This document shows, one piece after another, positions 1,718 to 42,141 of a DNA stretch of 44,150 nt. The translations under genes and the position numbers were made by a program. Source of the DNA: a virus (lineage: Duplodnaviria > Caudoviricetes); IMG/VR virus record IMGVR_UViG_3300032212_000033, positions 1 through 44,150 of that record. The stretch is one strand, 5' to 3'. The notes under the pieces are model-generated. The model was not told where the DNA came from and did no database searches. It saw nothing but the letters and a program-made list of their open reading frames with translations. Every line of letters begins with the position of its first letter. Position 1 is the first letter of the stretch.

Positions 1718-2287
1718 TTATTTTATAAGGCTTAAGAATTCATTCCTAGCCTTAATATCTTCTTTGAAGATACCTTGAAGCTTTGATGTTGTAGTGGTGC
1801 TGTTAACGTCTTTAATACCCCTATAACATACACATAGGTGACTAGCTTCGATCATTACCGCTACTCCTAAAGGCTCTAAAGCCTCCTGAATAGCATTAGC
1901 AATTTGGACAGTTAAGCGTTCTTGAACTTGCAATCTACGCATGTACTTCTCAACTATTCTGTTAATCTTTGACAGCCCTACAATCTTACCATTAGGTACG
2001 TAGGCTACATGACATACACCAAAGAAAGGTATCATGTGATGTTCACAGAATGACTGAAGTTTAATGTCCTTAACAAGTATCATTTCATCATACCCATCAG
2101 CACCATCTTCAAACACTTTCATAATGTCTTCATCTGATGGAGCATTGTAACCACTTAATAACTCGTCCCAAGCCTTTATAACTCTCTTAGGTGTCTCAAG
2201 CAGTCCTTCTCTGTTAGCGTTCTCACCAACATACCATAGTATATCACTTACAGCTTTCTCAGCTTCTAATCTCTCTACGTGGCTCAT
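1718..2287 (-). CDS. folE: GTP cyclohydrolase I
   Basis: REGLLETPKRV, SFCEHHMIPFFG, GLSKINR, LQVQERLT, HLCVCYRG motifs. Confidence 0.97.
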   Translation of the reverse strand: MSHVERLEAEKAVSDILWYVGENANREGLLETPKRVIKAWDELLSGYNAPSDEDIMKVFEDGADGYDEMILVKDIKLQSFCEHHMIPFFGVCHVAYVPNGKIVGLSKINRIVEKYMRRLQVQERLTVQIANAIQEALEPLGVAVMIEASHLCVCYRGIKDVNSTTTTSKLQGIFKEDIKARNEFLSLIK

Positions 2288-2535
2288 GTATTTTTCCTAT
2301 TCTGTCTTTTCATAGCTATAAACATAGCAAAGTTAGCCACATCGGCACATTCTCTAATAATTGAGGCATCTTCATTCTCATCAAGTGAGTCATTCAACTC
2401 TGACACCTCTTCTTTTAGCAACCTAAGAAGTTCATAAGAGCTTAAACGCTCAAAACCCCCTTTATGCTTATGTACTAGAAGCTTATGCTTCATATGTACT
2501 GTAAAGTCTTCAATCTCTTCATCAAATAAACTCAT
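2284..2535 (-). CDS. MazG-like (d)NTP pyrophosphohydrolase
   Basis: EEVSEL...ECADVANFAM acidic-helix signature (EExxE / ExAD). Confidence 0.7.
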   Translation of the reverse strand: MSLFDEEIEDFTVHMKHKLLVHKHKGGFERLSSYELLRLLKEEVSELNDSLDENEDASIIRECADVANFAMFIAMKRQNRKNT

Positions 2536-3296
2536 AGTAATGACTCCATATAGTTAATGTTGCTCACAGTAAGCTCATGGAATTCCTCAAAGGTAGTGAC
2601 CCTATCAAAATCCACAGCATCAGCAAACTTAGTTTCAGTCTTAGACACATCTAAACCATTTACACCATACCACACAGCTGCAGAAGTGTCCCAACTATTA
2701 ACCAAGTGTTTGTAGTAGGTTACACGTAAGATTTCATCTACACTGTTAAGCATTCCTAACATATGAAACTTCTTAGCGTTATTAGGAGTGTTGAACTTCT
2801 CAAGTATATGTGACCTAACCTTAATAGGTGGCATAAGCTCATAAGCATTAGGTGCACCTAAAATAGAAAGCCCTACAAAGTCTATGTCAGGGTGATGCAA
2901 GGCATTATGAATACTTAACTCATAGCCCTGAGCATCACCTTTAAGTGACTGAGGCACAAACATGGTTCTAAAACCTGCATCTTTGTAAGCTTTAATATCA
3001 CTCTCAATAGTCAACCAGCCTTTAGCCCAAGGTTCAAAAGGATAGTCAGGTAGAACCAAAATATCAGCTCCCACCTTGCGACCAATCTCAATCATTTTAT
3101 CTACGGGTAGGGGCACACCATTTTCAAAGGCTCCATTGTCAAGAAGCGTCTCTTTATTAGAAGCTTTAAACAGTTCAGCGTAAGCATCATCTTTATCCGC
3201 TATATGAGCCAGTACCATGTTCATACCACTACGTTTAATAGCATATGCTGCATCACTTGTAGGGGCAATATGTGCCAACTTAATATCTTCTACCAT
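2532..3296 (-). CDS. dpdA: DpdA-like TGT-fold DNA guanine transglycosylase
   Basis: LLDNGAFE, LVLPD, KFHMLG, SWDTS correspond to TGT/DpdA DSGAF, base-binding Asp, HxLG and nucleophilic Asp motifs; sits among que genes. Confidence 0.72.
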   Translation of the reverse strand: MVEDIKLAHIAPTSDAAYAIKRSGMNMVLAHIADKDDAYAELFKASNKETLLDNGAFENGVPLPVDKMIEIGRKVGADILVLPDYPFEPWAKGWLTIESDIKAYKDAGFRTMFVPQSLKGDAQGYELSIHNALHHPDIDFVGLSILGAPNAYELMPPIKVRSHILEKFNTPNNAKKFHMLGMLNSVDEILRVTYYKHLVNSWDTSAAVWYGVNGLDVSKTETKFADAVDFDRVTTFEEFHELTVSNINYMESLL

Positions 3297-3637
3297 TCTT
3301 CAACTCCTCTATAAACTGCACCGTTCTCATTATCTTCTAAGACCTCACAACTCTTAAGGTCAAACCTATTATATAACTCTCTAGCTATCATCTCACAACT
3401 CATCTTATCAAAGAAGTGAGTACGGTGATCAGCGTCATAATACTCTTCTTCAAGATACTCTAACATATCCTTCTTAAGCATTATGATTTCTCTATCACGA
3501 TCATCATGATTTACACGTTTCTCACATTTAAAGTAAAACACATGTCTGTGATGGTATCTGAGATAACTAACCTCTTCATGAGGGCAGTCAGCCCATCTAT
3601 GAATTCCCTCAAGCTGAAACTTCATTACTATGTTCAT
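3290..3637 (-). CDS. dpdL: QueD-paralogue T-fold protein, DpdL-like (putative CDG decarboxylase)
   Basis: EGIHRW, LRYHHRHVF (LxxxHRHxF in place of QueD CxxxHGH), SCEMIA, EDNENGA; start at 3637 gives TAATG coupling to queE. Confidence 0.65.
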   Translation of the reverse strand: MNIVMKFQLEGIHRWADCPHEEVSYLRYHHRHVFYFKCEKRVNHDDRDREIIMLKKDMLEYLEEEYYDADHRTHFFDKMSCEMIARELYNRFDLKSCEVLEDNENGAVYRGVEEW

Positions 3638-4251
3638 TATCTTACCTCCATAGCTTTGTGTGTTTGAAGTGATAGCTTCCACTCAGGGTTAGCCTTCACA
3701 AACTCTATACAGTATCTAACATTATCCATATCCCAGGTATGCTCGTTACCTATAGGCTGAACATATTTACGTTTAATATGCATCCAAGCAAACACATCCA
3801 CAGGATTGTCTACGCCAGCTAATAGCTTAAGCTCATGAAATCCAGTGGATGGTCTAGGTGCATCTTTGTCAAATGCTGCCTTAGGACTATAAGTAATATA
3901 GTCAGCCAATCTCACATTCTCAAGATTGAAGCCATTAGTCTCAACCTGAACGGTTACATTGAGGCTCAGGTTTAGGGCTGCAATGAGAGGATTAACATCA
4001 TGAAGACTGACTTCACCACCAGTAAGGACAACATGGTTAGTACCAGATGATGCAACGGCTTCCACGAGTTCCTTGATAGAGTATGTCTTGACCAAATCTT
4101 TATTAGTGTGAGCTTCATCATCACATACAAAGCCACCCCCAAAGTTACACTTAAGATTACACTTGTAAAATCTGATAAAAAACGCAGCTGTTCCAGCATA
4201 CTTACCTTCTCCCTGTATTGAGTAGAATGTCTCCACTATTTTATAGCTCAT
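3637..4251 (-). CDS. queE: 7-carboxy-7-deazaguanine synthase (radical SAM)
   Basis: ETFYSIQGEG, FIRFYKCNLKC...CD, VLTGGE, VETNG, SPK, LSLQTHK; probable ATG at 4251 overlapping queD stop. Confidence 0.95.
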   Translation of the reverse strand: MSYKIVETFYSIQGEGKYAGTAAFFIRFYKCNLKCNFGGGFVCDDEAHTNKDLVKTYSIKELVEAVASSGTNHVVLTGGEVSLHDVNPLIAALNLSLNVTVQVETNGFNLENVRLADYITYSPKAAFDKDAPRPSTGFHELKLLAGVDNPVDVFAWMHIKRKYVQPIGNEHTWDMDNVRYCIEFVKANPEWKLSLQTHKAMEVR

Positions 4252-4765
4252 AGATAGCCTCCGATTTTGGTGTTTCATTAAAGGTGACACGCTTAACAGT
4301 GACACCCATTTTAGCCATTTTAGTTTTAGCTATGTTAAAGAACCATTTAGATAAGTTCTCAGATGTAGGAACAAAATCCACGACCACAAACGACTCATAA
4401 AATTCATTTTCTAGTTCGTTGTCATCCAGTTCAAAGTATCCATAAGTTGCCCCACTATGAACCCCCTGCTCCACTTGACAAGGTGAGTTACCAGTAATAA
4501 CTGTAAATAGAGGGTCATTAATGTCAACAATAAACTTGTGGTCAATTACCTCATCAATAAACTTCTTGAACCAATTGAGGTGTTTAAAGTCTGTAACCAT
4601 TCCCTCTGTTAGCTCCTCAGCTTCCAATGAAATGGCTACCTTCATTCTGTGCCCATGCAGGTGACGGCACACACATTGATCATCAATACTGTACTCTTTG
4701 TTAAGTGTTTGATTATGAACTCTATGACCGTAATCACACTCAAACGTTTTTGTTATTCTATGCAT
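4241..4765 (-). CDS. queD: 6-carboxy-5,6,7,8-tetrahydropterin synthase
   Basis: GHRV, CRHLHGH, GMVTDF, DHKF, PTSENL, ETP motifs. Confidence 0.95.
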   Translation of the reverse strand: MHRITKTFECDYGHRVHNQTLNKEYSIDDQCVCRHLHGHRMKVAISLEAEELTEGMVTDFKHLNWFKKFIDEVIDHKFIVDINDPLFTVITGNSPCQVEQGVHSGATYGYFELDDNELENEFYESFVVVDFVPTSENLSKWFFNIAKTKMAKMGVTVKRVTFNETPKSEAIYEL

Positions 4766-5307
4766 TAGTTATCTCCTTGAAATTTAAACTTAATATATGC
4801 ATCACTCTCTACAACCATACCACAGTATGTAGGTTCAATAGGGCAGTTATAACGCTTACATAGTACAGCAGTATCATACTTACTGCCCTTTAATGTAGCT
4901 CCTGTGTCCGCTATATCATCTACCCATAGCACATACCTATCATCAGCTTCAGGTTCCATGTCAACATGAACCCTTGGAATATTTAAAGCATAGGCTACAC
5001 GTGCAGCCACATGCAGTCCACCTCTACCAGTTGTGTAGATAGCTAGATATTTCTCGTTAGGTATCTGTTTAATGAGATCAAACACTGCTTTGTCTTCATC
5101 AATAATGTCCTCACGATGAGCAAGCTCAACCCACTTAGCATACACTTGGATTTTCTGATAGTCCTCAACAAGTGAACCCTTCTCTCTCCAATTGTACTTC
5201 TCAATGCTCCATCTCATAGCACCAAGATAGGCTTCAGGTGACATGTTAGCTTTACACATAGCATGCACCTCAATACCCATATTAGCATAATGATCTTGGT
5301 TTCTCAT
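4765..5307 (-). CDS. DUF3310-like domain fused to type I phosphoribosyltransferase
   Basis: N-term HY..GIE...KYNWREKG..EDYQK (DUF3310 pattern); C-term GRGGL and VLWVDDIADTGATL PRPP-binding motif. Confidence 0.8.
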   Translation of the reverse strand: MRNQDHYANMGIEVHAMCKANMSPEAYLGAMRWSIEKYNWREKGSLVEDYQKIQVYAKWVELAHREDIIDEDKAVFDLIKQIPNEKYLAIYTTGRGGLHVAARVAYALNIPRVHVDMEPEADDRYVLWVDDIADTGATLKGSKYDTAVLCKRYNCPIEPTYCGMVVESDAYIKFKFQGDN

Positions 5308-6203
5308 TTTCTAGCCTTAAATATACTTAGTTCTACTCTAGTAACAAACTCCTCATGACTGACAGAAGTCACTTGGTGCATATCAGCTAGAATACCTGTT
5401 TGAATTGCTTCACCTAATCCCAAACCTTTCTTCTTGTAGAGTGCTAAAGTAGCATCCCACATTTCTTTGGGTTCTGTAAGACCTGCAAGAGCTTTATCAG
5501 CTCCAACCTTACCTACACCTGGAACACCCTTATAGCCATCAGAAGGGTCACCTGCAATCATTTGAAAGTATAAATACTTCACAGCCTCTAAAGGCTTAAC
5601 GATTTCAAACTCCTTCTTACCATAGTTGTAGTGACGACCAGCTGATTGATATAGTACATCCTTATCAAGAGCTGAAAGCAGATACTTCTCAGGGTCTTGT
5701 TTCTTTAAGTGAACTACTACATCATCAGCCTCACAACCATCACATACACGTACAGTTACGGGCACACCATCAATCTCAGTAATACTGAAGATATGAGCCC
5801 ATAACTCATTAAGCCCTGCTGGAGGTCTTGACTCTTTACGTGTAGCTTTATAGTCCTCAACATACTCCATACGGAAGTTAGGAGCTACATCCTCACAATG
5901 TAAACGTTCAGGCTTACCAGTCATGTATATCTCTATACTTGTAGGAGCTTGCTCACGGTCAGTAATAGCATCAACCATCCAAGCATCTGAAATCTCCTCA
6001 ATGTGATAGTTAACGGCATTGTATGCAGACTCTAAGTGTAACTGGTACTCACCACTAACAGCATACTCTGCCTCATCAGCATCATCAAAACCCTCTAAGC
6101 CTTCATCATCACCTTCAAGAGCATCAATGTCACAAAGCTCCTCACCTCTAAATGCTACTCTATAAAGGATAGAGTCACCATCAATTAAAACAACTTTACT
6201 CAT
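5304..6203 (-). CDS. 5'-3' exonuclease (T7 gp6/FEN-like)
   Basis: LIDGDSILYR, YKATR, EADD, DKD, GDPSDGYKGVPGVG; probable start 6203. Confidence 0.92.
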   Translation of the reverse strand: MSKVVLIDGDSILYRVAFRGEELCDIDALEGDDEGLEGFDDADEAEYAVSGEYQLHLESAYNAVNYHIEEISDAWMVDAITDREQAPTSIEIYMTGKPERLHCEDVAPNFRMEYVEDYKATRKESRPPAGLNELWAHIFSITEIDGVPVTVRVCDGCEADDVVVHLKKQDPEKYLLSALDKDVLYQSAGRHYNYGKKEFEIVKPLEAVKYLYFQMIAGDPSDGYKGVPGVGKVGADKALAGLTEPKEMWDATLALYKKKGLGLGEAIQTGILADMHQVTSVSHEEFVTRVELSIFKARK

Positions 6204-7923
6204 AAGTACACTCCCATAGACAACCATCCTTCTCAATAGTATTCATGTTCTGACCTACAAATACATCCACTGGCATAGGTAGGTCACTAATCTTAGTGTT
6301 CACTGTAATAGAGTACCAAGCTTCTCTCATGCACTCAGCTAGTACAGCTCCTACTTCTTTAGCCTCGTCAAGTGAGTCAGCTTCATAAGTATAGGAGTCA
6401 TGAATAAACATGAGCATCTTGCCGTAGTCCTCGCCCAGCCTCTTACGCATGTTCACTAAAGCTAGTTTTGCAACCTCTGCTCCAAGACCTTGGTTCATAA
6501 TATTGTTAGTATCTGTTGGAAGCTTACCAATATATTTACGTCCCATAGGTGTAGACATTACTGTCTTCTTCTGCCAATGACGAATGTTACGATCATGCCA
6601 AGCTTTAATGCCAGGGAAAGTATCAAGCCACTTTTTCTTGTTAGCCTTGAGTTCAGACTCAGGCAGTATCATACCAGTGTACTTTGTTAGTACATTACCT
6701 ACCTGAGCCCATCCAGCACCGTATAGACATGCAAAGTTATAAATCTTAGCAATCTGTCTTAACGAGTTACCACGTCCAGCATCACTAACCTCTTGGTCAG
6801 CACTAAATAGAGAGTCACGTACATAATCATGCATATCTTGTTTCTCTCTAAAAAGTTTCTCAAGAATGGGTTCACCAATCAATACACACAGACTTCTAAG
6901 CTCCAACTGAGCAAAGTCAGCATATACAAAGTATTTACCCTCTTTACACTGAATCATCTGCTTGAGTGATGTAGGTATCTGCTGTAAGTTCATATCGGAA
7001 CACTTAGAACGACCTGAACGAGTACCTATGTTTAGATACCCTTTCACATAGTCATCATCTTTACGTTCATTTAAGAACTTAGTAATGAATGAGTTCTGCT
7101 TTCTAAGTGACCTGACAGTTCTAACATTAGCGGCACGTTCATTACCACTAGCCGCAGCTAAAGCAAGAGCGTCATCATCTGACTGGTCAAGACCAATGTA
7201 AGGTCTCACTTGTTGATAGCTGTTCACATTGATAGGTAGGTTCATTTCATTAATCTGTGAGTTGTTGAGAGCCATACGCTCCTCTAACCACTCAACATCA
7301 ATAGGTAGTTTCTCACCCATCATAGCAAAAGCTTCAATAGTAGCTTTATCAAGCTTATACGTCCACCCAGCCGCATCAATGTCATAAGACTCAAACACTT
7401 TAGGTAGTGCCCAAACATCCATCGCAGCATAAGCATACTGCTGATCAGTTAGTCCACCTGACCAATCCGACTTCTGCATTTTCTTTTTATCGTATACGAT
7501 ACCTTTAGAGAAGTCAATCTGCTCACCATCCATATACACTGGATAGCTACCATCAAACATATCAGCATACATATCTTTACGCCATACACGCATAACTACA
7601 TCATCAAGTGAGTGTTTATCTTTATTGAAGTTTATGATAGTGTCTAGTACATATGTGTCATCCCATGACTCAGGACAAAAACCTAAACAATCCATATCAT
7701 ACTTGAAGTTGTGGCCTACTACATTAGAAGCCTCTTTGATACGCTTCTTAACAAGTGGTAGTGGAAACCTAGCTACATCATAAACATAGACGTTTTTCTC
7801 ATCAAGCTCAGGACAGTAGATTTGCACTACTCTCACGTCACCATGAAGTCCACGTGTTTCAGAATCACAGAATATTTGTTTGTCTTTGAAGTTTACATCT
7901 TCGCTGTTTAGAATTATGTTCAT
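6196..7923 (-). CDS. polA: Family A DNA polymerase with 3'-5' exonuclease
   Basis: Exo CDSET, HNFKYD, YAAMD; pol NLQQIP, ADFAQLELR, RQIAKIYNFACLYG, IHDS. Confidence 0.96.
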   Translation of the reverse strand: MNIILNSEDVNFKDKQIFCDSETRGLHGDVRVVQIYCPELDEKNVYVYDVARFPLPLVKKRIKEASNVVGHNFKYDMDCLGFCPESWDDTYVLDTIINFNKDKHSLDDVVMRVWRKDMYADMFDGSYPVYMDGEQIDFSKGIVYDKKKMQKSDWSGGLTDQQYAYAAMDVWALPKVFESYDIDAAGWTYKLDKATIEAFAMMGEKLPIDVEWLEERMALNNSQINEMNLPINVNSYQQVRPYIGLDQSDDDALALAAASGNERAANVRTVRSLRKQNSFITKFLNERKDDDYVKGYLNIGTRSGRSKCSDMNLQQIPTSLKQMIQCKEGKYFVYADFAQLELRSLCVLIGEPILEKLFREKQDMHDYVRDSLFSADQEVSDAGRGNSLRQIAKIYNFACLYGAGWAQVGNVLTKYTGMILPESELKANKKKWLDTFPGIKAWHDRNIRHWQKKTVMSTPMGRKYIGKLPTDTNNIMNQGLGAEVAKLALVNMRKRLGEDYGKMLMFIHDSYTYEADSLDEAKEVGAVLAECMREAWYSITVNTKISDLPMPVDVFVGQNMNTIEKDGCLWECTYE

Positions 7924-12349: not shown

Positions 12350-12784
12350 CTATAAACCTTTCAATAATTCTATATTTGCTAGATATACTTTACTATTATG
12401 AGTTTCTTTCACTTTAGTTTCTAATTCTTCTAACGTACCCCAAAAACACCCTGCTTGTACCATCCAACTATCATCATGTTGTTTGACACAATAAACCAAT
12501 CTTTTTGACGTATCATAAGCTATGAATTGGTAAACATTATTAGCCCTTCTTAAATTAGCACATCTTAAATCAGCACCTCTTAAATTAGCACCTCTTAAAT
12601 TAGCACATCTTAAATCAGCATCTCTTAAATTAGCACCTTCTAAATTAGCACATCTTAAATTAGCACATCTTAAATTAGCACGTTCTAAGGATATTCTATT
12701 AAATATACAATATTTAACCATTTCCTTAACAGTATCATATTCACCTTCATGTATAATAGTTCCATCAATTCTTTTAAGTTGCAT
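12350..12784 (-). CDS. Pentapeptide-repeat protein
   Basis: About 9 A[ND]L[RE]x repeats and C-terminal [12 protein letters not shown] motif. Confidence 0.92.
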
Positions 12785-14125: not shown

Positions 14126-16516
14126 TCACACCTCCTCAGGATATTTAATGTCTTGAACTTCTCCAAGCATGTTACTAATTAGTGACTTGTAGCCTTCAAA
14201 AGCTTCATCACTCAACGCAAACACATACCCATCACTAGGCCATGTAGCCCAGTCAGGTGGCATGTATGATGGCAAGTGTTTCTTCCACTTAGGTACATAC
14301 TTAGCACCACAGTTGTTAAAATCTACGTGAAGCATCTTGCCTATGCTTGACTTTGAAAACGTAGACTCCGCATGACGTTCAGCCATTACAAAAGGTAGGA
14401 ACATTTCAAACCATTTCCACGGTAATGCCACCTTGCCAGTATCAGCGTTATAGGTATGCACTAAGAACTGATACAGTTGTAACAGCTCACCCTCTCCAGC
14501 TTCATCAACCTTCACTATACCATGTAGGTCTTGAGGCTGACTCAACGAGTGGATAATATTCTGAGTATTCGTAGCACCACTACTCACCCACAGCTTCCTA
14601 TACTCAGTTGGTGGTGCCTCTTTAAACAACGCAAGCTGTGTAGCCTTATCAAACCCTGCACTATATAGGTGATATAGGTAGTCAGTAAACTCCTGAGCCA
14701 CCTCACTATGATCATGAGTCTGAAGCAGTTTAGCGAGCTCAAGTTGCTCCACCTCTGTTAGTGGTTCAGTCATTCCATGGAAATGAGCAGGCTCAAGACA
14801 CAGCATACGTCTATCACTAGGTGACAGCTTAAGCCTAAAGTTAGTTGAACCAGTCAATGCCACCTTTATACGCTCTGTACTAACAGAAGCACCCTTCATA
14901 TTCAGCTTGCGGTATGCGTTAGTATTCTGTTGTTTGATAACAGCGTATGCAGAGTCCCATTCCTTTACAGATAGGTTGGGCATATCCTCTAGCGACAATA
15001 GCCTCACTTGACTCACAGCATCACCCCACCCACTTGTAAGCGTCTTAACATCTATACCACTCGCAGCCTGCTGTAGTATTAGTGAAGGTATTTCAATAGT
15101 AACAGCCGACTTACCTGACCCACCTTTCTCAGTTTCAAGTGCAGCCATCCACAGCACGGTAGAGGGAGACTCACTACCAAACACTACCTGAGCATAAAAA
15201 GCCAGCACTATATCAAGATACGTTGGCCCCACAGTAGAGCGTAGTGTCTTCATCAGTATGTTGTTAGCACTCACAGTATCAATAGGTGATGCTTGTTTGA
15301 TATACTCACTAGGACTATACAGATTGACCTGATGTCTGTCGTGTCTAGTATCAATGGTATACTGTGGCTCATATGGAGAGTTCATAGTATAGATGATAGG
15401 CAGGTTAGAGTCCCACCCTACAACCCTACCTTCTTCATTCACTATATCTCTCTCAGGATGTAATGCTTGTGCCGTGTTGATGTCAATGAGATACGAGTTA
15501 CCATGAGCTACAGGCTCACGTGAAAACTTATCTACCTCAATGAAAAACAACTTACCATTGTTAATGGTTCTGAAGATTGGACTCTCTGTCGCAGGCTGAC
15601 TATCTAAATGCTCTTGAAAGGTCTGATCATCATCACTAAGTGAAAAGTGAGTAAGACTGGCGTGCTGAGGCAAACTCGGCAGTATATTGACGTGCATCAG
15701 AGATTGACTCATATCAGACATAGGATTGATACCCCACTGCGTTAGTAGCTTGTAGAGTGCAGGCACAGTATGTTCGTTGTAATCAAGCTCTGCAGTTGCA
15801 GTTAGCTTTACAGCAATCTTATTGAACAAGTCATAACTCAGTGGAAAGTCCTTGAGGTCAATCTTCTTTGTACCTGATTGAATATACTCTGCTGGAATGA
15901 TTGACCTATAAAAGGCATTCCACTGCTTACGACTCGTCAGCTCATCTTCAAGGAACGCCCTGACCAGGTTGAAACGCTGGACGTTAGTGGTTGGGGTTAT
16001 AATCCCAGTCTTGTTAGTGGTAGGCACGTCCAGCGAGTCAATCAGTTTCAGGAGGTCTTCAGGAGCCTCAAGCATTGGATTGTCATGAAGCTGATAGTGC
16101 TCACTAAACGTATGCGCTTCAAATATAGTACCATATGAAAACACATCACAATCAGTACCTAATATATGCGTTATGCGATTAGGGATGTTTGATGTGTTGG
16201 CGTTGTAGTAGATATGATAACTCCCTGGCTTAGTTGTCTGTGAGTAAAGGCTCAGAGGCAGTGTAAGCTCAAGAGAGGGTATCTCAATGGTATTTGCTTC
16301 ATTGTCTATAATTGAATACTCACCATCTATGTCAAACACTATGATATCTTTGGTTAAGAAGTGACGTGCCATGTTGTCATTCGGATAGCTTGACCAGTTT
16401 AGGTTGTCTACCCTCTTGGCATCTTTGGCTTTCTTCTTGCCATGCTCCATAGTCCACTGTCCCGCTGGAGTTAGAGTGATGTTGTGTTTAGAGAATGTCT
16501 CTATAATGTTTTGCAT
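14126..16516 (-). CDS. Primase-helicase (AEP/prim-pol N-terminus plus SF3-like helicase)
   Basis: IVFDIDG (DxD) and SYHIYY AEP motifs; KGGSGKS Walker A, LSLED Walker B, TGSTN motif C; probable start 16516. Confidence 0.82.
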   Translation of the reverse strand: MQNIIETFSKHNITLTPAGQWTMEHGKKKAKDAKRVDNLNWSSYPNDNMARHFLTKDIIVFDIDGEYSIIDNEANTIEIPSLELTLPLSLYSQTTKPGSYHIYYNANTSNIPNRITHILGTDCDVFSYGTIFEAHTFSEHYQLHDNPMLEAPEDLLKLIDSLDVPTTNKTGIITPTTNVQRFNLVRAFLEDELTSRKQWNAFYRSIIPAEYIQSGTKKIDLKDFPLSYDLFNKIAVKLTATAELDYNEHTVPALYKLLTQWGINPMSDMSQSLMHVNILPSLPQHASLTHFSLSDDDQTFQEHLDSQPATESPIFRTINNGKLFFIEVDKFSREPVAHGNSYLIDINTAQALHPERDIVNEEGRVVGWDSNLPIIYTMNSPYEPQYTIDTRHDRHQVNLYSPSEYIKQASPIDTVSANNILMKTLRSTVGPTYLDIVLAFYAQVVFGSESPSTVLWMAALETEKGGSGKSAVTIEIPSLILQQAASGIDVKTLTSGWGDAVSQVRLLSLEDMPNLSVKEWDSAYAVIKQQNTNAYRKLNMKGASVSTERIKVALTGSTNFRLKLSPSDRRMLCLEPAHFHGMTEPLTEVEQLELAKLLQTHDHSEVAQEFTDYLYHLYSAGFDKATQLALFKEAPPTEYRKLWVSSGATNTQNIIHSLSQPQDLHGIVKVDEAGEGELLQLYQFLVHTYNADTGKVALPWKWFEMFLPFVMAERHAESTFSKSSIGKMLHVDFNNCGAKYVPKWKKHLPSYMPPDWATWPSDGYVFALSDEAFEGYKSLISNMLGEVQDIKYPEEV

Positions 16517-16517
16517 A

Positions 16518-16988
16518 CTACGCCACCACAGCGTTGTCAAGCATGGTCAGCAGGACGTCTGACAGAGGCTCATCAAGCGTTACGTACATAGGTATAATAT
16601 CTGTGGGATACTCTTCATGACTAACACGCTCACAAATATAAGCCATTAAAGTGCCTGCGTCAGTAGCATCCATGTTCCACGTGGTAATAGTTAGCTTGTC
16701 AGGAAAGAATGACAATGCTTCAGCCACTTGAGTGGCAGTCCCTATAATAGGTTTGAGGTCATTGTCCCTAGTTATATAATACACCGTTGTTCCTGATGAT
16801 ATTGACGCCCTGAGTAGTGCGGCTATTGGACTCAGCTTTGCTTGTGACATGCCTATGTCCTCTGCAACAGCTACTTGTCCATAGTCTCTTATGCGTTTTA
16901 GAATGTCCGCTCTGTGATCTATGATGGCTATATAGTATTGAGGATTGTGTGGAATGCTTAGCCTTTTTAGTAGGTCTGTGTATGCCAT
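16518..16988 (-). CDS. Hypothetical protein with HTH-like segment
   Basis: GQVAVAEDIGMSQAKLS; AAGGA SD. Confidence 0.65.
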   Translation of the reverse strand: MAYTDLLKRLSIPHNPQYYIAIIDHRADILKRIRDYGQVAVAEDIGMSQAKLSPIAALLRASISSGTTVYYITRDNDLKPIIGTATQVAEALSFFPDKLTITTWNMDATDAGTLMAYICERVSHEEYPTDIIPMYVTLDEPLSDVLLTMLDNAVVA

Positions 16989-26480: not shown

Positions 26481-27554
26481 ATGGCAGATGAAGCAAGAAC
26501 ACAACAGATAATAAATGCACAAAGAGCCTCACAGACAAGAGTAGCTTTTAGTAAAGACATGGCAGATGGAATTACGACCTTTCCTTATATATTAACGGGT
26601 GGTGCTACGGGTAGTGGTTACTATCTAGAAACCCCCCCAACGGTAGAAATTTTAGGCAGTACATCAGAAGTTGGTACTACCTCTCCATTAGGTATAAATA
26701 CCCTATATAACGGTTTTGTTCAAGTAGGGAATTTAGTATACATACTTAATGGCTTAACTGGTGCTTTCTATTCTTACAATATTGATACAAATGTATGGAC
26801 AGTTTTAGCAACAGCACCAAGTCAAGCACAATATTCTACACCAGTAGTGCAGGGTGGTAAGATATACATAATGACTTATTACAATGGTACTGCTCATGTA
26901 ATGAACGCTCCTTTAGTTTATGATATAACTGGTGGCACATGGTCTACTTTAACAGCACCTACTGGATCTCCTGCTACAGTTTATATCTATTCGTCAGTTG
27001 CAGATGAAACAGATGCAAACATAATATATGTGATGTTAGATGCTAATGTTGCCGCTACTGATAGGTTGTGGTCTTACAACATAGCTACAAACACTTATAC
27101 AGTTATGACACCTCCTCACTTATCTAGTGCCTTAGAGAACATAGTATATGACAATGGTTATTTATATTATATAGCTTATAATGATAATTCTTTATATAGG
27201 TATAAATTAGTTGATGGTGTAAGTGAGTTGGTTAAAAGACTGTATTCAACACACCAAGTATATAGAGGGTTTTTATTTAAAGCAGGTGGTTTAATATATG
27301 CTGGTAGTGACTACGTTACAATCGCTACAGTTATTAACACTGCAACTGGCATTACTCAGTTTATGTATAGAGGTACATACCCTTTTCTTAATTCGTATTG
27401 TACATCACAAAGCACTTTTGAACATCAAGGAAAACTATACAGCTTTATGCCTTATAACTATGCTCATGATTTAACTAGGAATGTATATAGTGACAGAGTT
27501 TTAAGTATAGACTTATCTTTACCACATTTTTATAATCTAACAAAGGAGGTCTAA
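26481..27554 (+). CDS. Kelch-like beta-propeller protein (putative virion appendage)
   Basis: Repeated VYILNG/KIYIM...YNIDTNVW / YDITGGTW / YNIATNTY blades. Confidence 0.72.
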   Translation: MADEARTQQIINAQRASQTRVAFSKDMADGITTFPYILTGGATGSGYYLETPPTVEILGSTSEVGTTSPLGINTLYNGFVQVGNLVYILNGLTGAFYSYNIDTNVWTVLATAPSQAQYSTPVVQGGKIYIMTYYNGTAHVMNAPLVYDITGGTWSTLTAPTGSPATVYIYSSVADETDANIIYVMLDANVAATDRLWSYNIATNTYTVMTPPHLSSALENIVYDNGYLYYIAYNDNSLYRYKLVDGVSELVKRLYSTHQVYRGFLFKAGGLIYAGSDYVTIATVINTATGITQFMYRGTYPFLNSYCTSQSTFEHQGKLYSFMPYNYAHDLTRNVYSDRVLSIDLSLPHFYNLTKEV

Positions 27555-39552: not shown

Positions 39553-42141
39553 ATGGAGGAGTTAGATTTTGAAGGTGCTGAGGCATTTGTTGAAGATTTA
39601 GATTTTGAAGGTGCTGAGGAGTTCACGGGTAATGTTATAGCCTTTGAACAACCTGAACCTACCCTTACAGCTACTGATAGTTCTGAGACTCCTATGGATA
39701 TTCCTGAAGACACTCAGGCAACAATGTCCTCAAAGGAGTTAGAGGCTTCAGGTCACGCAGGTCAATTAGGTGAACAGCTTCAACTAGGTGTAGCCTCTAC
39801 GTTTGGTGGTGCCTATCAAGGAGCTTTAGACCTAGCTGATATGGTAGGTATTGATGTTAGCCAGGAGAGTGAACTAAACCTTAAAACACTTGAAATGATT
39901 AACACTCAAATGAAAGCTTATGGTGATGATAGCATGTTCTCTCCTAGTAATGTAGGTGAGATGCTTCCATCCCTTGCAACGTTACCAGTGGCTTATGCCT
40001 CTAAACTTGCAGGCTTTGTGGTAGAGGGTTCAATAGCTTACGCTGATTCAAGAGGGTCAGAAGCACCTATATCAGAGTCACTAACTAACATGGTTATTGC
40101 TGGTGGTTTAACTGCGGGTAGTAAATATGTGTTTGATTACTTTGCTCAGAAAGGGCCAAGAGCACTTCAAATGGTTAAAGATGAGTTAGGTGTAGATGAT
40201 AAAGCTTTAACGGGTATCTATACTAGGTTTGGTAAGGTAGTAGGTAAAGACGTAGCTAGCATGACTGATGGTGATAAAGCTGTAGCACTCCTATCACAGG
40301 GAAAGGATAAAGGTGCGGCAATTCTCCATGAGATAGTAGCTAGTGATTTCAAGGCTCAAAAAGCTATGGATGCTTTACATAAGTCTAAGGTCAATGCGCA
40401 AGGTAGGTTAATAGGTGAGAAGGCTAATGTAGCTAAAGCAATCAAACCTATACTAGAGCAGAAGAAGTTCGCTAGTCAGTCATATGCAGAGTTTAAAAAC
40501 TTTCTAACAAAAGCTAAACCTTCTGTAGTTGTTCAGCCTGATCAAGTAACTAAGATAGTTGAAGCTTTAGCTGACATACCTGAACTCAGTAGACAGCCTA
40601 TTGCTAATAGAGTCATGAAGACCTTAAGTAAGAAGCTTGAAAGTGGTGAAGCTATCTCAATGGAGGATTTGTTTGATGCTAGAGAAGCTATGAATGCTGT
40701 AACACTGAAAACCAAAAATGTGGATAAGAAAACCTTTGAAACAATGAAGGGTCAGAAGTTTATAGATAGTATGATTGAAGCTAACATGCCTGAGTCAGGT
40801 GCTAAGCTATGGAGTCAGCTTAAAGGTGAACTAAAACTAAGCTATGCTTTAGGTGGTAAGAACACTAAGGCTGAGCTTAACAACGTCTTTGGCTCCCTTC
40901 TTAGTGATGCAGGTAAAGGTAAAATGACCTACAAAGCTATCTTAGATAACATCTATAAGACGTCAGGTAATACTAATAAGTTAATGGGTAGACACTCATT
41001 CAATCAAATTAGGGATGCTATTGGGTCAGTTAAGATGGAGCAGTTTGAGCGTGGCCTTGTCAAAGAGATTATGGAGGGCACTGGTGATGATTTAGGTAAG
41101 ACAATTGATAGAGTTGATAACCTAGGTTTTGTAACTCCTGAAGGTAAAGCCTTGAAGAAAGAGCTGAAGGCTTTAGATAGAGTGTTCAGTTCTGATGACT
41201 ATTATAAGCTAGCTGCTAATGTATTGTCAGGTAGAGCTGACATTGATGGTACATCCATTACAGCTAACCTTCTTAGTAAGCTGAAGTATACAGCTTCAGG
41301 AGCTTCATGGAATTGGTTGAAGAAGCTAGTACCTACTGAGAAGAATAAGTTCATCAAAAACATGGACCACCTAACAAAGATGATAGGTAAGACTAACCTA
41401 AGTGTAGCGGATTTAAGAGGTGTAAACCCTAGCACCTTTAGGGAGTACCAAGGAGTTGTTAGAGAGAGTATTCAGAACACTATTGATGAAGACTTAGTAA
41501 GGTTCAAAGAAGATTTCAACCTAGACAATGCTGAAGTGATTGACGCTGATGAAGTAGCTAAGCAGGCTGGTGATGTGTTTGATACCAGTGTAATACCTGA
41601 AACTAAACAACTGCCTGGAGGAGCTAAACAGCTTCCAGCACAGGCTAGTGGTGATACGGCTATTCCTATGGCTGCACCTAAGGCTTCAGGTATTAAGGGT
41701 GAGAAAGTTGCTCTTGAAGCCTTCATTAAAGACCATAGGTCAGTAGATAGCGGTAAGATAGATAAGATAGTTAAATCAGCTACTCCTGATGTTCAAGCTA
41801 CTCCTGAAGCACCTTTATACAGAGGTATGCGTATGAGTGATATGGAATTTCAACGTATGATTGATAGTGGAGAGTACATAAGTAGAAAACCTGACTCATT
41901 CTCTACAGACCTAATGTCAGCTAAAGGTTTCACCCTTGAGCAGTTCACTGGAGCTAGTAAAGGTAAGAATGAGGTCATCTTGGTTGATTCTAATGGTAAA
42001 GGTGTTAACTTAGGTGAAGGAAATCAGTTTGGTGTTAAGAGTATTGAAGATGAAGTATTAGTACCTAAAGGCACAAAATATAAGATTAAATCTACCAAGA
42101 AAGAAGATGGTAGAACTATTGTAGAGGTGGAACAGCTTTAG
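39553..42141 (+). CDS. Large ejection-type protein with C-terminal ADP-ribosyltransferase domain
   Basis: Last structural gene; C-terminal LYRG, SFST, IEDEVLVPKGTKYKI (R-S-ExE). Confidence 0.78.
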   Translation: MEELDFEGAEAFVEDLDFEGAEEFTGNVIAFEQPEPTLTATDSSETPMDIPEDTQATMSSKELEASGHAGQLGEQLQLGVASTFGGAYQGALDLADMVGIDVSQESELNLKTLEMINTQMKAYGDDSMFSPSNVGEMLPSLATLPVAYASKLAGFVVEGSIAYADSRGSEAPISESLTNMVIAGGLTAGSKYVFDYFAQKGPRALQMVKDELGVDDKALTGIYTRFGKVVGKDVASMTDGDKAVALLSQGKDKGAAILHEIVASDFKAQKAMDALHKSKVNAQGRLIGEKANVAKAIKPILEQKKFASQSYAEFKNFLTKAKPSVVVQPDQVTKIVEALADIPELSRQPIANRVMKTLSKKLESGEAISMEDLFDAREAMNAVTLKTKNVDKKTFETMKGQKFIDSMIEANMPESGAKLWSQLKGELKLSYALGGKNTKAELNNVFGSLLSDAGKGKMTYKAILDNIYKTSGNTNKLMGRHSFNQIRDAIGSVKMEQFERGLVKEIMEGTGDDLGKTIDRVDNLGFVTPEGKALKKELKALDRVFSSDDYYKLAANVLSGRADIDGTSITANLLSKLKYTASGASWNWLKKLVPTEKNKFIKNMDHLTKMIGKTNLSVADLRGVNPSTFREYQGVVRESIQNTIDEDLVRFKEDFNLDNAEVIDADEVAKQAGDVFDTSVIPETKQLPGGAKQLPAQASGDTAIPMAAPKASGIKGEKVALEAFIKDHRSVDSGKIDKIVKSATPDVQATPEAPLYRGMRMSDMEFQRMIDSGEYISRKPDSFSTDLMSAKGFTLEQFTGASKGKNEVILVDSNGKGVNLGEGNQFGVKSIEDEVLVPKGTKYKIKSTKKEDGRTIVEVEQL

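Follow-up and report, generated by a model that had tools for sequence, protein, structure and literature searches.

A compact 7-deazaguanine operon of a podovirus-type phage and a possible nucleotide-level role for DpdA3

How does a 7-deazaguanine base reach phage DNA, by exchange on the finished polymer or through the nucleotide pool? The question is raised by a nine-gene operon in the phage record IMGVR_UViG_3300032212_000033, all 44,150 bases of which were analysed (the window). Its nine open reading frames (ORFs) lie on the minus strand from position 7923 to position 1718, in the order polA, exonuclease, DUF3310/phosphoribosyltransferase (PRTase), queD, queE, dpdL, dpdA3, MazG-like, folE. 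Cui et al. (Nucleic Acids Research, 2023; PMC10516641) proposed that all DNA modifications of this kind are post-replicative. According to the excerpted text of that paper, every DpdA enzyme assayed so far acts on DNA; for DpdA1, DpdA2 and bacterial DpdA, action after replication is established, and for DpdA3 it is a proposal. The same excerpts state that attempts to test DpdA3 did not succeed and that dpdL together with dpdA yielded no dDG in E. coli. The first-pass annotation of this DNA, that DpdA inserts deazaguanines after replication, is correct for the first three groups and takes a proposal for a fact in the case of DpdA3.

We propose, with about even confidence, that 7-deazaguanine enters DNA via the nucleotide pool, DpdA3 swapping the base on free deoxyguanosine monophosphate (dGMP). 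That DpdA3 itself may be a nucleotide-level enzyme is a possibility absent from the first-pass annotation. A broader form of the proposal is put forward more tentatively, at slightly less than an even chance. In this form, DpdA3 would be a mononucleotide transglycosylase, with the fold of tRNA-guanine transglycosylase (TGT) and dGMP as the substrate. All complete DpdA3 guanine-replacement phages, with dDG, dADG or fdPreQ1, would make their modified dGTP by a cycle, similar to that of Z-genome phages, that joins a dGTP pyrophosphatase, DpdA3 and a deoxynucleoside monophosphate (dNMP) kinase, and the nine-gene operon would be a minimal self-contained kit for guanine-free DNA.

Results

We compared the neighbourhoods of dpdA3 and dpdA1. 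The DpdA3 loci were the best 80 from each of 549, 288, 99 and 233 confirmed sequences, and the DpdA1 loci were the best 80 of 590, plus named phages. The anchor gene was present in 407 of 410 loci, which formed 197 clusters at 80% identity. One locus per cluster was retained, with at least 1.5 kb on both flanks; L172 (a duplicate of CP220) and L087 were left out. The survey set thus consisted of 84 main-clade DpdA3 loci, including the window, 15 Immutovirus-like DpdA3 loci and 51 DpdA1 loci.

A kinase-like gene was found within three genes of the anchor in 82 of the 99 DpdA3 loci and in none of the 51 DpdA1 loci. Pyrophosphatase-like genes were found at the same distance in 88/99 and 1/51 loci, respectively, the single DpdA1 neighbour being a dCTP deaminase. 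Both genes together were observed in 77 DpdA3 loci and in no DpdA1 locus. Fisher p-values for these counts take no account of relatedness and were set aside. The P-loop kinase profile was built from Pfam-confirmed P-loop proteins. As the gene-family profiles had been trained on DpdA3 neighbours, the control was re-checked by Pfam. Among the 125 of 147 unlabelled DpdA1 neighbours covered by this re-check, no kinase family was seen; two deoxyribosyltransferases were found, and one each of MazG, HD hydrolase and dCTP deaminase. The remaining unlabelled neighbours were mostly covered by other scans or by record annotation. In 44/51 loci DpdA1 adjoins a family annotated as DNA polymerase beta clamp. 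Genes for nucleoside 2-deoxyribosyltransferases occur near DpdA1 in a few phages (L265:7715-8125, L290:6059-6496). Kinase-like and pyrophosphatase-like genes are companions of DpdA3 but not of DpdA1, which bears out the earlier suggestion that nucleotide-level enzymes are tied to the 7-deazaguanine system. The PRTase, to which the same suggestion extended, proved patchy and occurs near DpdA1 as well.

In the window, the kinase candidate is the N-terminal part of a 180-residue fusion of DUF3310 with a Gpt-like PRTase (4765..5307, minus strand; PF11753 E 7.5e-6, PF00156 E 1.4e-4). The DUF3310 domain occupies residues 1-68, scores 26.3 bits with PF11753 against the cut-off of 24, and matches gp1.7-type nucleotide kinases. 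Gp1.7 of T7, a dTMP/dGMP kinase, is the one protein of this type with demonstrated dNMP kinase activity (PMC11897194, in excerpt), and the window domain is a predicted dNMP kinase of the same type. Its label was taken from Pfam, the profile trained on T4-like loci having missed it.

From -5 to +4 kb around dpdA3 in the 84 main-clade loci, DUF3310 was found in 52 loci and P-loop kinases in 19, and no locus had both. On a FastTree phylogeny of 102 DpdA3 proteins, a rough tree with long branches, the DUF3310 label changes seven times, at least six of these changes being forced by well-supported branches, and the P-loop label changes eight times, at least four of them forced. Thus the swap between DUF3310 and P-loop proteins occurred repeatedly: two unrelated kinase folds displace one another and never co-occur. 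Two gene fusions were observed: DpdA3 with DUF3310 in Rhizobium phage RHph_I1_18, and a kinase with a dUTPase in L406.

In the DpdA3 clade with no recognised kinase (L140-L165, L386; eight representatives) the dUTPase-fold partner is present. The kinase slot of some of these loci is taken by small proteins, c69 and c149, which have no similarity to DUF3310. A GMP-reductase/IMPDH-like family was observed near DpdA3 in L140 and L167. In two other loci the DUF3310 slot contains PF18909, the N-terminal domain of dATP/dGTP diphosphohydrolase (L091:2648-2986; L025:5589-6398, there fused to PRTase). This protein could be an unrecognised kinase or a dGTPase. However, hhalign found no homology between PF18909 and DUF3310, and PF18909 genes occur also in the podoviruses PH1 and KF-1; for these reasons it was counted neither as a kinase nor as a pyrophosphatase.

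The pyrophosphatase slot of the window is occupied by a MazG-like all-alpha NTP pyrophosphatase of 83 residues with dGTP as the predicted substrate (2284..2535, minus strand; PF01503 E 9e-5, PF03819 E 6e-4). The metal-binding quartet ExxE...ExxD (E43/E46/E62/D65) is invariant in all five aligned members of the family. MazZ was absent among the PDB sequence matches of this protein, and BLAST found no similarity between it and the MazG proteins of PH1 and ct1fd225. The same 83-residue MazG lies between dpdA3 and folE in L090, L091 and L092, and between queC and folE in L452 and L467, where QueC replaces DpdL.

Over all DpdA3 loci the occupant of this slot has either a trimeric dUTPase fold or a MazG fold, the commonest partner having the dUTPase/dCTP-deaminase fold. 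By eye, this partner lacks the deaminase glutamate. In phages D479 and Ahp1 a canonical dUTPase is encoded elsewhere (E 3e-18 and 5e-25), and the DpdA3-linked copy scores about 1e-5. No second copy was found in the other three of the five genomes checked. Judging by these scores, the DpdA3-linked dUTPase is a second, divergent copy in two of five genomes.

DpdA3 of the window is a guanine transglycosylase-family protein of 254 residues (2532..3296, minus strand; hhalign P 98.55, E 1.5e-15 to CGPG_00065 of phiST), and DpdL, the proposed decarboxylase of 7-carboxy-7-deazaguanine (CDG), has 115 residues (3290..3637, minus strand; 35% identity, E 4e-19, to CGPG_00067 of phiST). Neither has a Pfam match, and both were identified via the phiST homologues. 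The DpdA3 profile recovers DpdA3 of CP220 (E 4.5e-12) and matches that of the Immutovirus; DpdA1 of iggy and phiSM are unmatched. A viral scan with DpdA1 of phiSM as the query returned zero relatives. The predicted structure is a bare TIM barrel of the TGT type (pLDDT 96), and the closest folds are TGT and the bacterial DpdA 7ui4. Positions D53, D84, H178 and D203 are invariant in the DpdA3 alignment, and the three aspartates, the predicted catalytic and guanine-binding positions, are kept in all of 61 and all of 11 aligned sequences. These motifs correspond to invariant aspartates of DpdA1 and presumably to TGT Asp102/156/280. The median net charge per 100 residues is -4.0 for DpdA3 and -1.9 for DpdA1, both acidic and weakly separated. 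The TGT fold can change its substrate class, as in Cap10, where it is remodelled for a protein substrate.

The other enzymes of the pathway are FolE, a GTP cyclohydrolase I of 189 residues (1718..2287, minus strand; PF01227 E 2e-72), QueD, of 174 residues with an intact CxxxHGH motif (4241..4765, minus strand; PF01242 E 1e-26), and QueE, a radical-SAM CDG synthase of 204 residues (3637..4251, minus strand; phrog_2076 E 3e-28). The DpdL motif LxxxHRHxF, described in PMC10516641, is found in the window protein. Upstream lie the genes of a family A DNA polymerase with a 3'-5' exonuclease domain (575 residues; 6196..7923, minus strand; PF00476 E 4e-36, PF01612) and of a 5'-3' exonuclease (299 residues; 5304..6203, minus strand; PF02739 E 1e-9, phrog_107). 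All eight junctions overlap, by 8, 4, 1, 11, 1, 7, 4 and 4 nt from polA to folE, and the order and coupling of the nine genes are as first described. The likely starts are 6203 for the exonuclease (an ATG with a Shine-Dalgarno-like site), 4251 for queE (ATG) and 3637 for dpdL.

The scan of 53 window ORFs detected no reductase, QueC or QueF, in agreement with the earlier remark that no ribonucleotide reductase is visible, and a QueC profile run on the window was also blank. PurZ and DatZ were likewise absent from these ORFs. By gene content (FolE, QueD, QueE, DpdL, DpdA3, no QueC) the operon is a 7-deazaguanine (dDG) system of the phiST type. The phiST system is known; the compact form of the locus is new. 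Terminase, capsid, portal and internal virion genes are present in the window. No exact terminal repeat was found when looked for, so the completeness of the record is unproven.

Several other window ORFs were noted. An 862-residue ORF after the portal region (39553-42141, plus strand) has a weak C-terminal match to ADP-ribosyltransferases (phrog_3895 E 2e-6, PF03496 E 0.005) and is possibly an injected host-takeover protein. An 804-residue ORF (14126-16540, minus strand) has no Pfam or PHROG match and no similarity to the primase-helicase that PH1 encodes upstream of its Dda helicase; no primase was identified in the window by the Pfam and PHROG scans. A pentapeptide-repeat protein is encoded at 12350-12784 (minus strand) and a Kelch-like beta-propeller protein at 26481-27554 (plus strand), within the structural region.

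Discussion

The proposed pathway would run as follows. FolE, QueD and QueE convert GTP to CDG by established chemistry. DpdL would convert CDG to 7-deazaguanine; this decarboxylation is a published proposal (PMC10516641). By cleaving dGTP, the MazG-like protein would remove the competing nucleotide and at once supply dGMP as the substrate, as MazZ does in Z-genome phages. On dGMP, DpdA3 would then replace guanine by 7-deazaguanine; the resulting 7-deaza-dGMP would be phosphorylated by the gp1.7-like DUF3310 domain, and a host diphosphate kinase would complete the triphosphate, to be incorporated by an unspecialised PolA. As an accessory step, the released guanine would be salvaged by the Gpt-like PRTase to GMP and GTP, for use by FolE. 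Neither a reductase acting on the new base nor a special polymerase would be needed. The substrates assigned to the enzymes here are predictions built on genes, families and linkage that were observed.

A swap on dGMP at the level of the pool would account for complete replacement, for the failure of the two-gene reconstitution, and for the free nucleoside in CP220-infected cells. The neighbourhoods name two missing partners and a different substrate for complete guanine replacement by DpdA3, and this would explain why the reconstitution failed.

Several observations weigh against this proposal. The activities of the MazG-like protein, DpdA3 and the DUF3310 domain, as well as the modified base of this phage, are all predicted. 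The 83-residue MazG family occurs within 4 kb of DpdA3 in 6 of 59 loci only, these six including three near-copies and one repeat of L403; it is near DpdA1 in 0/59. The window DUF3310 is four genes away from dpdA3, and many ordinary T7-like and enterococcal phages have this domain. No kinase was recognised in 13 of the 99 DpdA3 loci, eight of which form one clade. The complete relative G001, which has DpdA3, DpdL, QueD, QueE and FolE, and PF18909 fused to PRTase, yielded no kinase and no MazG-like match in 40,000 of its 40,632 bases. Near polA, PH1 and KF-1 also have MazG-like and PF18909 genes, and no dpd genes are annotated there. In CP220, the HD protein upstream of dpdA3 resembles the CCA/PNK type, unlike a known dGTPase. 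The DpdA1 control comes mostly from one siphovirus group, whereas most DpdA3 loci are T4-like. A T4-like DpdA2 control was not obtained: the DpdA1 profile, PF01702 and NF041059 all missed DpdA2 in VH7D.

The window also avoids restriction sites, with observed/expected ratios of 0.24 for GATC, 0.17 for CCGG and 0.39 for GCGC. Over the G-containing 4-base palindromes the ratio averages 0.68, against 0.84 in phiST, 0.91 in CP220 and 0.92 in immuto_13-6C (60 kb each). This avoidance fits incomplete or recent protection and argues weakly against full protection of long standing. It is indecisive, as CP220 avoids CATG (0.03) and PH1 avoids GATC (0.06). CpG is strongly depleted in the window (0.39), and this depletion, together with avoidance of GATC, CCGG, GCGC and CGCG, is partly common to G001, L090 and L091; it suggests a host rich in restriction systems.

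The strongest alternative is the model of Cui et al. (PMC10516641, as excerpted), in which DpdA3 swaps the base on DNA after replication; the PRTase, kinase and pyrophosphatase would then do no more than balance the pools and recycle the guanine, released in large amounts. We consider it rather unlikely. The record of the assayed DpdA enzymes is on its side, as are the nearness of the DpdA3 fold to TGT and 7ui4, the Gpt-like PRTase that stands also beside DpdA1 in 11/51 loci, the persisting avoidance of restriction sites in the window, and G001 with its lack of a detectable kinase. However, it leaves unexplained why kinase-like and pyrophosphatase-like genes flank DpdA3 and not DpdA1, and why folds displace one another repeatedly. 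Destruction of a deoxynucleoside triphosphate would be of no help to a post-replicative swap, and the excerpts of PMC10516641 report no DpdA3 product in E. coli.

Another possibility is a different entry at the level of the pool, with DpdA3 acting on dGTP, dGDP or a ribonucleotide, or a dual system in which the pool route is finished on DNA. The co-occurrence data name no substrate, and the 13 loci with no recognised kinase would fit a triphosphate. On the other hand, a monophosphate kinase next to a pyrophosphatase would point to a monophosphate branch point, and gp1.7 acts on dNMPs (PMC11897194, in excerpt). We regard such variants as distinctly improbable.

The PolA of the window is closest to those of the podoviruses Pseudoalteromonas phage PH1 (37%) and KF-1 (33%), and in PH1 there are no annotated deazaguanine genes in the 19 kb around polA. 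With the DpoZ models it scores 54 bits against a cut-off of 500 and 35 against 350, and DpdA3 loci were found alongside both PolA and PolB. By its relatives it is an ordinary polymerase of this podovirus group; a dedicated polymerase of the Z type, as in the first-pass annotation, was rejected on these scores. A further alternative is that DUF3310, PRTase and the small MazG are bystanders, ordinary phage nucleotide genes within a replication operon. Similar genes do lie near polA in PH1 and KF-1, DUF3310 is widespread, and 53 of the 59 loci with the 83-residue MazG have no DpdA3 within 4 kb. But BLAST shows no similarity of the window MazG to those of PH1 or ct1fd225, it is part of the cluster in five relatives, of which two have QueC replacing DpdL, and the family-wide contrast between DpdA3 and DpdA1 remains. 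The bystander explanation has little probability.

The PRTase half of the fusion (residues ~70-180) is short and divergent, its PF00156 match (1.4e-4) being below the Pfam cut-off. The family has the Type I PRPP (phosphoribosyl pyrophosphate) motif, and its profile is closest to purine and xanthine-guanine PRTases (1a98, E 1e-18), but every member scored with the NCBIfam model is far below the cut-off. The fusion with DUF3310 recurs in L467, and the two genes form an unfused adjacent pair in L452. A PRTase was found near 54/99 DpdA3 and 11/51 DpdA1 loci, and is absent from the phiST and CP220 neighbourhoods. In the DpdA1 loci it is mostly an N-terminal extension of FolE. Examples of such fusions, detected by our own profile and unseen by Pfam, are L179:7028-7933, L283:7070-7984 and L340:6745-7662. 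The predicted function is guanine salvage, and the distribution together with the Gpt-like family suits salvage of guanine released by any transglycosylase. The guanine-recycling branch of the first-pass annotation fits such an enzyme.

The other branch, in which the PRTase joins 7-deazaguanine to PRPP, a kinase and a host reductase convert the product to 7-deaza-dGTP, and a dedicated PolA selects it, has very little probability: the PRTase is fused to a kinase-like domain in the window and L467, is enriched near DpdA3, and is accompanied in G001 by reductase-like genes named by sequence reading only, but it is missing from 45/99 DpdA3 neighbourhoods, phiST and CP220 among them, DpdA3 would be left without a role and the base put into RNA pools, and the PolA is ordinary. 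The PRTase was thus rejected as the obligatory entry point of the new base, being patchy and present also with the post-replicative DpdA1; the need for a host reductase follows from this route alone and is therefore unsupported. What stands of the first-pass annotation is a deazaguanine system with nucleotide-level enzymes, and what falls is the PRTase entry, the reductase and the dedicated polymerase.

If the dGMP exchange proposed here is correct, the TGT family acquires a new substrate class, guanine replacement is placed alongside the Z-genome logic, and 7-deaza-dG DNA could be produced enzymatically or in vivo with a compact gene set. The locus makes a published, unproven mechanism directly testable against a specific alternative, reducing the problem to a question about one enzyme: dGMP or DNA.

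Comparison with known systems

The closest known system is that of Cellulophaga phage phiST, which, like the window, has FolE, QueD, QueE, DpdL and DpdA3, and no QueC (PMC10516641, as excerpted). Its genes are arranged as queD, queE, folE, MazG, dpdL, a P-loop protein (AAA_18, 9e-7) and dpdA3; thus a MazG-like and a kinase-like gene lie inside the cluster, and a polymerase adjoins it. In the excerpts of PMC10516641, the phiST MazG is noted in the cluster with no role assigned and CGPG_00066 is set aside. The window differs from phiST in its 44-kb podovirus-type genome with PolA, in the added Gpt-like PRTase, in a kinase-like part that is DUF3310 rather than P-loop, and in a MazG of an unrelated 83-residue family.

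Flavobacterium Immutovirus (fdPreQ1) and Campylobacter phage CP220 (dADG) resemble the proposed model in having DpdA3 with a P-loop kinase-like neighbour. Immutovirus 2-6A is the phage whose base was measured, and its relative 13-6C was examined here. In 13-6C the order is PRTase, folE, NTP pyrophosphatase, dpdA3, dpdN, a thymidylate-kinase-like gene, queF and polA, so that PRTase, NTP pyrophosphatase and PolA are shared with the window. In CP220, dpdA3 lies among structural genes and is followed by an AAA_28 P-loop protein; an HD plus P-loop protein precedes it, and no pyrophosphatase was established. Thus phiST, CP220 and Immutovirus 13-6C, which represent the lineages for which full replacement is reported, all have a kinase-like DpdA3 neighbour. 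Unlike the window, Immutovirus and CP220 have other bases and much larger genomes, and Immutovirus has QueC, QueF and DpdN.

For Campylobacter phages, a modified dGTP had been suggested in 2019 (cited by Hutinet 2019, PMC6884629, in excerpt). A literature search, with most subscription papers outside its coverage, found no paper beyond Cui et al. on the mechanism of DpdA3. DpdA3-family genes with DpdL homologues were observed in the cultured phages D479, Ahp1_CNU-2021, RHph_I1_18, Bakedbeans and MA9V-3, where none of the records names DpdA3, and a DpdA3-family gene with QueC, not named so in the record, in Bacillus phage BSP7. These six phages (loci L001, L002, L003, L004, L086 and L170) are candidates for complete guanine replacement.

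The DpdA1 systems (9g, iggy, phiSM) share with the window a barrel of the TGT type in which the invariant Asp and His positions correspond, as well as FolE, QueD and QueE. They differ in having a beta-clamp neighbour and QueC, and in the kinase-like neighbour, seen in 0/51 loci. Replacement in DpdA1 phages is partial, 0.1-30% of G (PMC10516641, as excerpted). The two halves of the 180-residue ORF resemble T7 gp1.7 and E. coli Gpt by sequence and profile similarity, and in the window they are fused.

In Z-genome phages, with PurZ, MazZ, DatZ and DpoZ, a MazG-fold dGTPase (MazZ) supplies dGMP (PMC8342488, in excerpt). The predicted logic of the window is similar: a MazG-fold conversion of dGTP to dGMP would feed a conversion at the monophosphate level, and the pattern of acidic residues is alike. 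Unlike these phages, the window has neither PurZ nor DatZ among the scanned ORFs, its PolA is not DpoZ, and the predicted converter has a transglycosylase fold; moreover, supply of the pathway and depletion of the competing deoxynucleoside triphosphate could be the work of a single enzyme.

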